From IMG/VR virus record IMGVR_UViG_2617270988_000009: 33,205 nucleotides of DNA; one strand, written 5' to 3'. Positions 1 through 4,726 of this stretch are shown piece by piece. Every line of letters begins with the position of its first letter. Positions within the stretch are counted from its first letter, which is position 1. The notes under the pieces were generated by a model, which did no database searches, was not told the DNA's origin, and was given only the letters and a program-made list of their open reading frames with translations. The position numbers and the translations under genes were made by a program. Origin of the DNA: a virus. Lineage: Duplodnaviria > Heunggongvirae > Uroviricota > Caudoviricetes.

Positions 1-241
1 CCCGCCGCCGCCAGCTTGTGCGCAATGGCATTAATATTTGATGGCCTGATGTGGCCTGCCTTGTACAGCCGGACACAATAGCGCCCCTCGTCGATGATTC
101 TCAGGTCTGCCAGTTCATCCAGTTGATCATCAGCCAGCACAACGGGAGGCACATTATCGCCAGCCAGTCGCCCGTCCTGTTCCTGCCACTGTTTCGCATG
201 TGCCCAGGCATCACTACCCGCAAAAATAATGACTTCGGTCA
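1..241 (-). CDS. hypothetical protein, partial (start at 241, runs off the window start); N-terminus MTEVIIFAGSDAWAHAKQW...
   Basis: Reverse-strand translation from ATG at 241..239 is open to position 1; first gene of a compact minus-strand small-ORF operon. No family recognised. Confidence 0.4.
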
Positions 242-280
242 TCTTGTCGTAAGGCTGTTTTTTTAAGTTCGGTGCGCTTT

Positions 281-580
281 TCATTTCTTGCCCCTGAATC
301 CGTTAATCATGGTTTTCAGCTTCTGGATGTTTGCCCGTGCCCTGGCGTTGCTGGTGGGCACGTTATGCGGCGCGGTCTGTACCAGAGAAAAATCACGCCG
401 GAACTGATAAACAGGCATCACGCAATCATATTCGTAACCTTCACGGCGGTAGGTTACGCGCCGTTCTTCCACGCCCTTAATCATTACCGTGCCGCCGTAC
501 TGGTCGCGGTAAATATCACCGCGCGTAAATTTAGGGTGAGTGTTGCCACTGGCAGTTAAGCCAGAATATTTAAGTTTCAT
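281..580 (-). CDS. hypothetical protein (99 aa)
   Basis: Six-frame ORF on the same strand and tightly packed with neighbouring small ORFs; no recognisable family. Confidence 0.4.
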   Translation of the reverse strand: MKLKYSGLTASGNTHPKFTRGDIYRDQYGGTVMIKGVEERRVTYRREGYEYDCVMPVYQFRRDFSLVQTAPHNVPTSNARARANIQKLKTMINGFRGKK

Positions 581-585
581 TATTT

Positions 586-819
586 TTATTCTCCGGTGTG
601 CTGTTCTTTATATCTGTCGTGCAATAGATCTATTTCTTGCAGTTCCATTATTACAGGCTCAAGAAGCGTTATTAATGCCGTGGCAATTCTTGATTTTTGT
701 TTGTCGCGTTCATTGTCGCCAAGTGTTTCAAGCCATATGCGCAATATTTCCAGCATGTTTTCACTGTGAGAAAGTGCAAGAAATGCGCGGTCTATTGTTT
801 GGTGGTAAATATCACGCAT
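586..819 (-). CDS. hypothetical protein (77 aa)
   Basis: Six-frame ORF, same strand as neighbours; 8-nt overlap with upstream ORF suggests translational coupling. Confidence 0.4.
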   Translation of the reverse strand: MRDIYHQTIDRAFLALSHSENMLEILRIWLETLGDNERDKQKSRIATALITLLEPVIMELQEIDLLHDRYKEQHTGE

Positions 820-1072
820 GGCTTACATCCTCAGGAAATTTTCTTCTATAACGCGCCTCTGCCACATATTCCGCATAATCGGCGGCGATATTCAGTACAT
901 CAAGCCCCGTTGATTTATATTCTCTCGTGGAAAGTAAGAAAAAAGCCGCTCTAATAAGTTCTGGCATTGACGAAAGCGCATCAGCCGCATCATCAGGAAC
1001 GCCGGAAAATTCCTGTTTCAGGGAATTAAAACGATCATCACGCATAACCCCCCCCATTTTCACAATCAGCAA
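812..1072 (-). CDS. hypothetical protein (86 aa; true start may be an internal Met, MRDDRFNS...)
   Basis: Six-frame ORF in the same operon-like array; start ambiguous. Confidence 0.35.
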   Translation of the reverse strand: MLIVKMGGVMRDDRFNSLKQEFSGVPDDAADALSSMPELIRAAFFLLSTREYKSTGLDVLNIAADYAEYVAEARYRRKFPEDVSHA

Positions 1073-1277
1073 TCAGGATAGCTTTGGCCTCATTCAGCGC
1101 CGTATCAGCACTAAATTGCATGACAGCCAGTGAGTGAGGAACGAAAGCACCGGCATATTCTGTTTCGCTGGTGGCGTGCTTATGTGCCCTGTCCGCGATA
1201 ACAGAAATATCAATCAGCGCGTGCATCAGCGTTTTGATGGCTTCGGCGGCTGCGTCCGGTGTGGTTTTATTGTGCAT
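1038..1277 (-). CDS. hypothetical protein (79 aa)
   Basis: Six-frame ORF; its start overlaps the stop of the upstream ORF. Confidence 0.4.
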   Translation of the reverse strand: MHNKTTPDAAAEAIKTLMHALIDISVIADRAHKHATSETEYAGAFVPHSLAVMQFSADTALNEAKAILIADCENGGGYA

Positions 1278-1479
1278 AAAGCATCCCCTGAATATTCGTG
1301 TTAATCATTCCGGCACGTTTTGTGATTTCCTGTAATGATTCCCTTGTGGCGACAATTGCTTCATCTGGTAAGTGGTAATTACACACCACGCGACCTTTAT
1401 CCACATTGACCAGTAGCTGCCCTGTGAATTTCTCACGAAACTGAATGCGGTTAAGGTCAGTAAGTGACAGATTAATCAT
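1267..1479 (-). CDS. hypothetical protein (70 aa)
   Basis: Six-frame ORF; start overlaps the upstream ORF end by 8 nt. Confidence 0.4.
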   Translation of the reverse strand: MINLSLTDLNRIQFREKFTGQLLVNVDKGRVVCNYHLPDEAIVATRESLQEITKRAGMINTNIQGMLYAQ

Positions 1480-2321: not shown

Positions 2322-2398
2322 TGACAGATTTGCCAACCAGCCAAAAATGTGGCATCGTTGTCGATACATAGTGTAATCAACATGTATATCATATTTTT

Positions 2399-2425
2399 GC
2401 GACCATCATAGGTCGCATTTTTTTT
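2399..2425 (+). terminator. Rho-independent terminator (GCGACC-ATCATA-GGTCGC followed by a T8 run)
   Basis: Perfect 6-bp stem, 6-nt loop, immediately followed by TTTTTTTT on the plus strand, downstream of the 1881..2321 gene pair. Confidence 0.65.
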
Positions 2426-2695
2426 GCCTGTAATCCGGCAATTGTGGCGCTTCTTCACACAGTTGATATAATTCCAATGCTCATATTTATTTTTTGTGCA
2501 GCAGGTTAATCGTTCACAAAGGCGCTCAGGTAACTGGGCGCTTTTTGTTATGCCTGAAAAACCCCAATTTTGTTGTTTTTCAGTTTCACCAGGGCGAACG
2601 AATCCCCGCCTACGTTCTGGCGTATATTCAATCTTCATGGTTATAGCTCTGTGTTCAGATGATTGATGTGTGGCGGCTGCGTGCCGCCAGCGTGA

Positions 2696-2884
2696 TTAAT
2701 GAACTGCCTTGCAGCTATCCTTCCAGGCCAGAACCTCGGATAAAGACCAGCCAACGGAACGACCGCCAAGTTTACGACGTGATGGGAATTGTCCGGCCTT
2801 TTCCAGGCGGTAGCGACACGTACGGCTAAGGCCGGTTAGTTTTTCGCATTCTTTTTCACGTATAAACCGATCAGTGCTTAACAC
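2696..2884 (-). CDS. AlpA-family transcriptional regulator / excisionase-like helix-turn-helix protein (62 aa)
   Basis: Sequence pattern LTGLSRTCRYRLEKAGQFPSRRKLGGRSVGWSLSEVLAWK resembles the AlpA (prophage CP4-57 regulator) family; lies next to a P4-type integrase. Confidence 0.75.
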   Translation of the reverse strand: MLSTDRFIREKECEKLTGLSRTCRYRLEKAGQFPSRRKLGGRSVGWSLSEVLAWKDSCKAVH

Positions 2885-3248
2885 TATTGCCCCCTTTCGT
2901 TTCTTAAAGAGTCATCAGGTGTCTTATTGTGTCGTATTGTTCCCGCTAGAGTGATAAATGGCAAATACTGAGGATGTATGATTTACAGAAAATGAAACAG
3001 TAAGAATAAAATCTTTTAAATTCATGTTAATACAAAGGCATAAAATATTGTTTCATGCCTTTTTTCTCGCTCTTTAAAGAGTGATTCGCTAGTGTATAAA
3101 AAACCAGTAACGCATTAAAAATCAGCTACTTATAAATCCGTACGCTTTTTCGCCTCTTGTTCGTAGTTGTTCCACATTGTTGCTCATTGTTGCACGTTGT
3201 ATCTGTTCGCATATACAGTATGCGCATACTGAAAAAACACGAAAAAAA

Positions 3249-4499
3249 TTATTTTCTTCTGGCTACTGGTAGCGTGGTTACGTTTTCATGTGTTCCCGCC
3301 AGTATCCCTAACCGCTCCGTCCACATATCCAGCGCATTGCGTTTAGCATCCAGATAACGGGAATGATTATAAACTCGCTGCATTCCTGGCATCTGGTGGC
3401 CTGTAAGCTGCTCCACGACGTGAGGATCCACGCCTAAATCGTTCAGCATCGTTGTAAAGGTGCGCCGGATGTCATGTAGTGACCAGTGAGGGTGATTTAG
3501 CCTCCTGTGCGCTAATCTGCCGTACTGCGACACGCTTGTTTCCTGTTTCACTTCCCCCAGCAATAAACCCGTGTGCCTGTTCTGCTCCACCAGCTGCGTG
3601 ACGAACGGCAGTATTGCTTCCGGTATGGGCCGGAATATTGCCACCTTCGTTTTGCTGTGTTCTTTCGGCACGGTCCAGAGCATTTCGGTAAAATCCCACT
3701 CGCTGATCTCCGATAACCTCAGTTCTACCGTCCGGCATCCGAACACAATCAGGAGGCGGATTAACGCGATGTAGTAGGGGGAGAATATTTTTTTGTCCAG
3801 TGCCTGCAATAATTCGCCCAGTTCTTTGGTGCTTAAGACACGCTCGCTTATATCCGGTTTTTTCCCAACGTCCGCCACACTCATATCATCAAGAACGTTG
3901 CTGATTGCATAGCGCCGCCTCCGGCAGAACTTAAGCGCCTGTTTGCACGTCTGTAGCAAGAATCCGGCAGTAACAGGCGTTCGCTTTGCCACCTGGTCAA
4001 AACAGGCCAGCCAGTGCCGTAGCTCGCATTTATCCAGCGGCATAGCACCAATGTGCTGTATTACGTGATTATTAAGGCGCTTTTTCAGGGCGGCATAATC
4101 CACGCGGTTTTCCTTTGCGTACGACTCAAGCCAGTAGGTGAGCGCATCGCCAACCGTTACCGGCTTTAACGCTTCCTGTACGGTGTAATTAAGCTCATGA
4201 CGTGGATTTTTCCCCTCTGCCAGCCATGCGCGACACTGGGCGGCTTTTTCCCTGGCTGATTTCAGGCTCAGATCAGGATAATTTCCCAGCTTAATGCGTT
4301 CCGGTGGTGCCCCCCTTCCCGTTCCGGCCCTGTAAGTGAAATACCAGGTTAAAAGGCCACTGGTTGAATGCCTGACGCTCAGGTTTCCACCGTCATTAAG
4401 AAAGGCTGTTTTTTGGGCGGGTGTGCCGTTGATTTTCCTCAGCTGTGTATCGCTCAGTTTGTTAAGTGCTCTGCTCATAATTTTGATTCCGGTCATCAC
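3249..4499 (-). CDS. site-specific tyrosine integrase, P4/CP4-type (start may be the internal Met at 4478, MSRALNKLSDTQ...)
   Basis: P4-integrase-like N-terminal arm-binding region (LSDTQLRK...DGGNLSV...WYFTYR) and C-terminal catalytic motifs (HDIRRTF, VYNHSRY). Confidence 0.9.
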   Translation of the reverse strand: MMTGIKIMSRALNKLSDTQLRKINGTPAQKTAFLNDGGNLSVRHSTSGLLTWYFTYRAGTGRGAPPERIKLGNYPDLSLKSAREKAAQCRAWLAEGKNPRHELNYTVQEALKPVTVGDALTYWLESYAKENRVDYAALKKRLNNHVIQHIGAMPLDKCELRHWLACFDQVAKRTPVTAGFLLQTCKQALKFCRRRRYAISNVLDDMSVADVGKKPDISERVLSTKELGELLQALDKKIFSPYYIALIRLLIVFGCRTVELRLSEISEWDFTEMLWTVPKEHSKTKVAIFRPIPEAILPFVTQLVEQNRHTGLLLGEVKQETSVSQYGRLAHRRLNHPHWSLHDIRRTFTTMLNDLGVDPHVVEQLTGHQMPGMQRVYNHSRYLDAKRNALDMWTERLGILAGTHENVTTLPVARRK

Positions 4500-4523
4500 A
4501 ATTAACTACACCATTAACTACAC
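4500..4523. repeat. tandem direct repeat ATTAACTACACC x2 immediately upstream of the integrase start; candidate att / integrase arm-site
   Basis: Exact 12-bp unit repeated head-to-tail at the element-host junction. Confidence 0.4.
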
Positions 4524-4726
4524 CGATCGTTGCACAAAGGGCTACAACGTGAAACAAGCTGGAACAAGGAAAATCACAAATCTGTTTATAATCAAAAACA
4601 TAATGAACAATCTGAAACATTATGAAACGGCAAAAAACACTAATTGATAAAATATGTCCATACTTCACGCATTACGTTAAGCATCCGTTATAATCGGTTG
4701 CAGATACCAGCCTGTGGATGCTTAAC

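Follow-up and report, generated by a model that had tools for sequence, protein, structure and literature searches.

A probable phage-inducible chromosomal island arm between phoQ and roxA carries a candidate YlcI-type repressor cassette

The 33,205-nucleotide stretch of viral DNA recorded as IMGVR_UViG_2617270988_000009 (hereafter the window) begins with a tyrosine integrase and an AlpA-family regulator that stand next to the chromosomal gene roxA, followed by a row of small genes on the same strand and a divergent pair. This raises the question of what kind of element occupies the site and what its small genes contribute. We found that positions 1-4659 are very probably the integrase-proximal arm of a phage-inducible chromosomal island (PICI) belonging to a satellite family resident at the phoQ-roxA site, whose late genes are known from relatives only. 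Within this arm a member of the YlcI/YnfO family (DUF3950) is encoded divergently from the early genes, with operator-like sites in the interval between them. On this basis we propose, tentatively and with doubt slightly outweighing belief, that a subset of enterobacterial PICIs and capsid-forming PICIs (cf-PICIs) may carry an undescribed immunity-like cassette, consisting of a divergent DUF3950 protein of the ribbon-helix-helix (RHH) type and three allele-specific operators.

Comparison with Escherichia coli K-12 establishes the insertion. In K-12, phoQ and roxA are separated by 75 bp with no intervening gene, as the initial annotation had stated under the older name ycfD. K-12 thus represents the empty site, and by this comparison window positions 1-4659 are an insertion that separates the two genes, placed at the phoQ stop codon. 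The impression that an integrase-AlpA element had been inserted beside roxA was accordingly sound, and the element is accessory and not a core feature of all E. coli: the K-12 site is empty, and an integrase of at least 95% identity is found in approximately 559 of 5426 complete E. coli genomes. The empty K-12 site reads TAAATATGCCC-ATACTTCACG (with the stop codon, phoQ-TAA-ATATGCCC-ATACTTCACG). In occupied genomes the left junction reads TAAATATGTCC and then passes into foreign DNA. The core or crossover repeat is AAATATGTCC, and in relatives its left copy overlaps the stop codon of phoQ. Its right copy lies at 4650-4659 in the window; the insert ends there, and ATACTTCACG comes next. This boundary at about 4659 is also the annotated end of prophage Sp7 in the Sakai record, 69 bp before roxA, and it extends the element beyond the 1-4525 interval that had first been assigned to it. 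roxA itself (4718-5848, plus strand) is followed by pepT, potA and potB. No tRNA or tmRNA was found at the attachment (att) junction.

Inside the boundary lies the right attachment-site arm (4500-4568, plus strand), which contains two ACTACACC repeats (at 4505 and 4517) together with ACAACGTGAAACAA. In relatives the corresponding arm is found approximately 85-150 bp inside the phoQ-side end. The 33-bp repeat at 4500-4535, which includes two ACTACACC units and has ACAACGTG-RAACAA after it, is matched by a copy some 85 bp inside that end; the direct repeat of the 4500-4717 region that the initial annotation had proposed to look for at the other boundary is therefore present at the far end, beside phoQ. 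A ACTACACC-N4-ACTACACC arrangement occurs near both ends in all eight of the fetched loci showing two copies, and these include elements at other bacterial attachment (attB) sites, namely ilvG/yifB and cspD. We considered the 33-bp repeat as the att core and rejected it, both because the K-12 comparison puts the end of the insert at 4659 and because elements that use other attB sites carry the repeat at their ends as well. From their architecture, the repeats at 4500-4535 would instead be arm-type integrase sites flanking a short core. Two further ACAACGTG-NAACAA repeats stand on the minus strand at 3160-3200, between int and alpA, and the motif is also present in both att arms. The window has three matches where chance would give 0.03, and none of 100 shuffles reached three; these repeats may be candidate binding sites for AlpA or for the integrase.

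The integrase gene (3249-4478, minus strand) encodes a protein of 409 amino acids with matches to Pfam Arm-DNA-bind_3 and Phage_integrase, and alpA (2696-2884, minus strand; PF05930, E 5.4e-17) follows it by 365 bp in the same direction, in agreement with the P4-type integrase and AlpA-like regulator originally reported next to roxA. The integrase reading frame is open as far as 4499, where an upstream GTG would give 416 amino acids, and the RefSeq start of the identical protein is at 4478. The integrase is identical to that of Sakai Sp7, whilst related integrases (about 91% and 82% identity) serve the tqsA and yifB sites, and the AlpA protein is 100% identical in O157:H7. The start of the integrase gene is only 20-170 bp from the element end, and its promoter must therefore be in the att arm; once the element is excised as a circle, transcription entering from its opposite end could also reach the gene.

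Several lines of evidence indicate that the inserted element is very probably a PICI. Its genes run in the order int, alpA, a variable zone, an early operon (an Icd-like gene, three small genes and a DUF4222 gene) and a RepA-type helicase. The published PICI plan has four zones, which include integration (int and alpA), a dynamic zone after alpA, and replication (Mageeney 2023, PMC10111431). The window shares the integration, dynamic and replication zones, as well as the AlpA activator, with Gram-negative PICIs such as EcCICFT073 (PMC6092414; PMC10111431). It contains a tyrosine integrase with a dedicated att site, alpA after int, and the start of a replicase (94 codons), and relatives at the phoQ-roxA site supply the other features of the Gram-negative PICI model (Fillol-Salom 2018; SatelliteFinder), namely a capsid-morphogenesis gene and small terminase subunit (TerS), an absence of tail and lysis genes and a size of about 11-15 kb. 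All six of the occupied phoQ-roxA sites that we examined held satellites, and none held a prophage. The cf-PICI set of own genes for major capsid, protease, portal, head-tail connectors, HNH, TerS and the large terminase subunit (TerL) is present in Sakai Sp7 and in FORC_042, whose cf-PICI has a RepA-type arm and also occupies this site, and is absent from O55:H7, from O157:H7 strain 2159 and from EPSSH018, which is of an 11-kb type and has the ylcI switch. ESDR8 also carries cf-PICI genes; its far end adjoins a tqsA fragment, and the module may come from another satellite. In relatives that have been characterised it is AlpA that activates the PICI cycle (PMC6092414; 10.1101/2022.09.08.507074; PMC11773190), and induction and transfer by helper phage have been shown for EcCIEDL933 and EcCICFT073 (10.1101/2022.09.08.507074; PMC6092414). 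By analogy with this published work, a helper phage would switch on alpA, AlpA would activate the island genes, and the island would be excised, replicated and packaged.

The closest named relative is the 15,461-bp 'prophage Sp7; untypable' that lies between roxA and phoQ in Sakai. It encodes AlpA, small genes, DUF4222, a DUF927 primase, a single-stranded DNA-binding protein (SSB) and the PerC homologue PchE, and then a major head protein, prohead protease, portal, adaptor and both the small and large terminase subunits before phoQ is reached. Judged by this gene content Sp7 is a capsid-forming PICI, and by size and gene content only it fits EcCIEDL933, the 15.4-kb cf-PICI prototype from EDL933, a sister strain of Sakai (10.1101/2022.09.08.507074). 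The window and Sp7 share an identical integrase, an int-alpA arm that is 99.0% identical (window positions 2498-4800), the same attB and boundary, and the layout of alpA, small genes, DUF4222 and replicase. They differ in that Sp7 has a co-directional gene of 247 codons after alpA where the window has the divergent ylcI-orf61 unit, in the alleles of the small genes, and in a replicase of DUF927 type as opposed to the RepA/AAA_25 type of the window. The other end of the arm has a different affinity: positions 1-1513 are 99.6-99.7% identical to an 11-kb phoQ-roxA element of O55:H7 and O157:H7 strain 2159, a PICI with the classical set of genes, for RepA helicase, SSB, PerC, a major capsid protein, a decoration protein and TerS. 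This element resembles the window in its RepA start, DUF4222 and small genes. It has no ylcI switch, a long stretch annotated as 'Icd-like, incomplete' being found instead, and its integrase is 98.3% identical rather than 100%. Because 2498-4800 matches Sakai and 1-1513 matches the 11-kb PICI, the window is, by these alignments, a mosaic of modules circulating among satellites at the phoQ-roxA site. The best-matching roxA-side arm is that of ESDR8 (locus L001). The far end of this satellite (7954-9100 in L001) adjoins tqsA in place of phoQ, which suggests that two related satellites using different att sites have undergone inversion or recombined with each other.

The window differs from both Sp7 and the 11-kb PICI of O55:H7 and strain 2159 in the region between alpA and the early operon. 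The initial annotation had noticed a divergent regulator pair here, and this pair is real: ylcI (1881-2078, plus strand; 65 amino acids) is divergent from the early operon and is followed in the same leftward unit by orf61 (2136-2321, plus strand; 61 amino acids), which has the Shine-Dalgarno sequence AGGAG. The unit ends in an intrinsic terminator (2398-2425, plus strand) with a 7-bp stem and a T8 tail. Between ylcI and the Icd-like gene lies what appears to be a switch region (1774-1853) with back-to-back promoters and three operator-like sites. These sites are 10-bp palindromes, with TGTGCGCACA at 1774-1783 and again at 1797-1806, and TGTGCGCCCA at 1844-1853. Promoter-like elements are found for the early operon (-35 TTGACA at 1812-1807, minus strand) and for ylcI (-35 TTAACA at 1816-1821 and -10 TATTGT at 1839-1844, plus strand). 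The two TGTGCGCACA sites bracket the -10 region of the early promoter, and TGTGCGCCCA lies on the -10/+1 region of the ylcI promoter. Nowhere else in the 33-kb window is the operator motif matched, and the three sites span no more than 80 bp. Their number alone is not significant in 33 kb, since at least three matches were obtained in 20 of 100 shuffles; the operator argument rests on clustering and covariation, not on match count.

The covariation comes from nine YlcI alleles in four genera, each with its own inverted-repeat operator sequence. In addition to the window these comprise eight others, drawn from satellites of E. coli (four att sites), of Klebsiella and of Yersinia and from a Salmonella integrative element, and their operator sequences are GGTGTAAGACAC, GGTGTTGAACAC, GGTGTGGCCCAC, GGTGTCAGCCAC, GGTGTATTTCAC, GGTGTTTAAATAC, GGTGTGTAGACA and TGTGGCCACA. 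The operator-like sites occupy the same three positions in seven of these eight, the third site being beside the -35 element instead in FORC_029, whilst the loci that carry the ylcI allele of the window all keep TGTGCGCACA. The ylcI gene belongs to a conserved family under purifying selection, and the predicted model of its product has the beta-alpha-alpha topology of an RHH fold, on which ground the YlcI-like protein would be a DNA-binding protein of this type and a candidate repressor. A search of the YlcI fold against the PDB with Foldseek, a phmmer search and a profile search against PDB sequences returned nothing, and an hhalign comparison with Arc placed the beta-strand in register, but at a probability of just 3.6%. 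Because of the predicted RHH fold, the sites over two promoters, and the covariation of allele and operator, the YlcI-like protein is probably an allele-specific repressor of the early operon of the satellite. It would bind the three operators over the back-to-back promoters, thereby keeping the early replication operon shut and limiting its own synthesis until relieved, and in this variant the RHH repressor would act as a second lock on the replication operon.

Such an arrangement has counterparts in other systems. The Stl/Str region of the Staphylococcus aureus pathogenicity islands also has a small repressor gene divergent from the island replication operon, although Stl has no sequence relationship with YlcI. 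The RHH repressors Arc and Mnt of P22, CopG and Omega share with YlcI the RHH fold and the use of short inverted-repeat operators over promoters (the YlcI sites being putative). Gram-negative PICIs, in contrast, have been described as unidirectional (PMC6092414; PMC10111431), whereas the window has a leftward gene with its own promoter, operator-like sites and terminator; the 2018 description also left the global repressor unclear (Fillol-Salom 2018, PMC6092414). In cf-PICIs, a gene that varies and has no known function has been noted downstream of alpA (2025 preprint, 10.1101/2025.02.11.637232), and a 'YlcI/YnfO family protein' in Enterobacter cf-PICIs has been listed merely as an accessory gene (2026 survey, PMC13612085). 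We found no paper assigning a function to YlcI or YnfO (subscription literature being outside the scope of the search). A second YlcI/YnfO-family gene, 42% identical to that of the satellite, is present in the lambdoid prophage that fills much of the window (25668-25850, plus strand). It has the small terminase gene on one side and the lysis genes on the other, is encoded on the strand opposite that of the late genes, and has no triple operator upstream. It is possible that this paralogue provides a link between a helper-type phage and the satellite switch.

An alternative for this unit, which we consider improbable, is that ylcI and orf61 form a type II toxin-antitoxin module, with an RHH antitoxin and a small toxin, that stabilises the island. 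The pairing of a small RHH protein with a second small gene is what suggests it. However, ylcI is without a co-directional partner in about half of the loci that carry it, and where there is a partner it varies (61 amino acids, 57 amino acids or another protein). The orf61-like partner in locus L005, for example, is 57 amino acids long and weakly similar, and the partner is not always beside ylcI. Two of the three operator-like sites, moreover, lie over the divergent early promoter and not over that of ylcI itself, and orf61 matches no toxin family; indeed, it has no Pfam, PHROG or NCBIfam match. It is because ylcI is often partnerless and two of the operators serve the other promoter that we regard the toxin-antitoxin reading as less likely than repression of the early operon by YlcI.

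The operon that YlcI would control starts with the Icd-like gene (1472-1675, minus strand; 67 amino acids; NCBIfam NF033153, E 1.4e-19; phrog_6196, E 1.7e-45), which is annotated 'host cell division inhibitor Icd-like' in relatives. It is followed in order of transcription by a gene for 70 amino acids (1267-1479, minus strand; phrog_340, E 1e-23) with the strong Shine-Dalgarno sequence AGGAGG, the phrog_2512 gene discussed below, a gene for 77 amino acids (586-819, minus strand; phrog_2196, E 4.4e-42) with the Shine-Dalgarno sequence GAGG that is hypothetical in all relatives, the DUF4222 gene (281-580, minus strand; 99 amino acids; E 1.6e-24) and the helicase. The last of these is a RepA/AAA_25-type replication helicase gene of which the first 94 codons are seen (1-284, minus strand); its start is at 284 and it runs off the window. 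This fragment matches positions 1-88 of the 465 in the phrog_2850 profile (E 2.8e-37), the gene is annotated 'helicase RepA family protein' or 'AAA family ATPase' in loci that are 99.7% and 93% identical, and the complete RepA/AAA_25 gene is present in those that are 99.7% identical. The element is indeed represented by its integrase-proximal end, as had been supposed at the outset. The stop codon of the DUF4222 gene overlaps the helicase start (ATGA), and on this arrangement the DUF4222 gene is translationally coupled to the RepA-type helicase gene. In most of the related satellites that we inspected, DUF4222 stands directly upstream of the primase or helicase gene, whatever the replicase type. 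The model of the DUF4222 protein is a Tudor/KOW-like barrel that resembles the RNA-polymerase-binding C-terminal domains of UvrD/PcrA and the N-terminal domain of CarD. We did not adopt a function on this ground; the predicted fold is too generic, and the resemblance to UvrD/PcrA and CarD is a lead only.

The phrog_2512 gene (812-1277, minus strand; 154 amino acids when intact) is split in the window into two open reading frames, one at 1038-1277 (79 amino acids) and the other at 812-1045/1072 (77 or 86 amino acids), which match phrog_2512 positions 1-76 and 72-154, respectively. The only difference from the intact 154-codon gene of O157:H7 strain 2159 is one inserted G in a G-run at approximately 1048-1055 (interval 1045-1056), where the window has eight Gs versus seven in that strain, and the same split is present in O55:H7. 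The downstream half keeps an ATG of its own directly after the G-run, and PHROGs has a separate family for each half. Both halves may still be made.

The initial annotation had counted seven small minus-strand reading frames of 67 to 99 codons with no recognisable family, and offered them as candidates for an undescribed, perhaps anti-phage, module of cargo. There are in fact six reading frames representing five genes, and they belong to DUF4222, to the Icd-like family NF033153 and to PHROGs 2196, 2512, 340 and 285, all of unknown function, with PHROG E-values for the small reading frames between 1e-23 and 6e-52. The description of them as tightly packed with overlapping start and stop codons was accurate, and all have Shine-Dalgarno sequences. 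Whether comparative alignments would reveal a coding signal had also been raised. For the most part they do: pN/pS is 0.1-0.4 in most comparisons with enough substitutions (for example, 0.36 for the gene of 70 codons against a version 82% identical at the DNA level), although samples are small and the gene of 77 codons is near 1 in one comparison. That all of these genes are of unknown function, and that satellites do carry defence genes (PMC10085698), speaks for an anti-phage or accessory module, a reading that we nonetheless consider very unlikely. Among the loci inspected, PICIs and cf-PICIs at many E. coli att sites, and others in Klebsiella and Yersinia, keep the same small-gene order between alpA and the replicase, and this order stands upstream of differing replicase types. 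Of 5426 complete E. coli genomes, 1882 (more than a third) contain sequence resembling the early-operon stretch at positions 1-1700, and the last small gene is coupled to the helicase gene as described above. None of the ten proteins compared with the PADLOC-DB 2.0 defence models gave a match at E 0.01 or better. Finally, defence hotspots in cf-PICIs have been placed around the packaging module, such that immune systems would be expected in the variable regions that flank it (10.1101/2025.02.11.637232). Taken by their conserved position and families, the small minus-strand reading frames are an early backbone operon of function-unassigned families and not cargo.

The initial annotation had also called the element P4- or CP4-like, and a satellite of P2-type phages or a CP4-57-like cryptic prophage with cargo beside the integrase would share with the window the same broad type of integrase, an AlpA/Vis-like regulator and small genes before the replication gene. 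AlpA is common to P4-like elements, and the logic of SatelliteFinder cannot separate P4-like elements from PICIs by integrase, AlpA and replicase alone (PMC10085698). However, sid, psu, delta, epsilon/ash and the alpha primase are absent from positions 1-4659 and from every full-length relative inspected, the relatives with this arm all have PICI or cf-PICI late genes, and the replicases of the window and its relatives are of the RepA, D5_N or DUF927 type. The att site is without a tRNA or tmRNA, and an Rfam search over positions 1-4800 found no C4/isrK immunity RNA (the CI RNA of P4) or other RNA family. We therefore give a P4-like identity hardly any credence and retain that of a PICI arm. 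Equally hard to credit is that the reading frame of 388 codons at 1472-2638 (minus strand) is a real, long Icd-like gene downstream of alpA with ylcI and orf61 as antisense artefacts: it is unusually long (open for 1167 nt, antisense to two genes), gene callers report versions of 433 codons in two other genomes and long proteins ending in an Icd-like domain exist (phrog_29966), but ylcI is conserved under purifying selection with a folded RHH model, the long frame runs across the promoters, operator-like sites and terminator and is without a Shine-Dalgarno sequence, its family matches are confined to the Icd-like last 67 amino acids, and other loci that share this ylcI allele have the frame closed, the one called there being of 67 or 116 codons. 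We have treated it as most likely spurious.

A number of observations weigh against the picture of a PICI arm with its own repressor. The late module lies beyond the window, the exact mosaic was present in no genome searched, and the best single match, ESDR8, has 95% coverage at 97.7% identity. One of the early genes in this copy of the island is frameshifted, which could mean decay. In addition, published Gram-negative PICIs have no known repressor as well as being unidirectional, and a repressor role for a protein such as YlcI is therefore without experimental precedent among them.

Beyond roxA and the pot genes, the remainder of the window (9357-33205) is a lambdoid prophage inserted at the 3′ end of potB. 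In this prophage espK (9719-11080) is followed directly by the tape measure gene (11574-14816); O157:H7 relatives have, after espK, a block of tail-fibre, J and effector genes (espN and nleL) that is missing here. Further genes encode a tail tube protein, portal, protease-capsid fusion, TerL, TerS and lysozyme. The late region at 30211-33205 resembles that of Stx phages but is without stx, and includes a NanS-p-type esterase (DUF1737 and SASA domains; 30211-32091) and the small RNA STnc100 (32698-32887). It also has two tRNA-Arg genes, and a truncated third tRNA gene at the end of the window.

The family of the element, its attachment site and its gene order have already been annotated or published, and in these respects the locus is of low interest overall. 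It does illustrate how, at one site, classical satellites and capsid-forming ones have integration and early arms that are nearly identical, and how modules are exchanged among them. Of greater consequence is ylcI with its co-varying operators, a cheaply testable candidate for a layer of repression, which bears on a question that the 2018 description left open. If the proposal is correct, then the YlcI cassette would supply Gram-negative PICIs with the repressor that had seemed to be missing from them, and its many specificities would determine the satellites that can reside together or the helper signals by which they are released. A first function for ylcI and ynfO of the E. coli K-12 prophages would follow as well.

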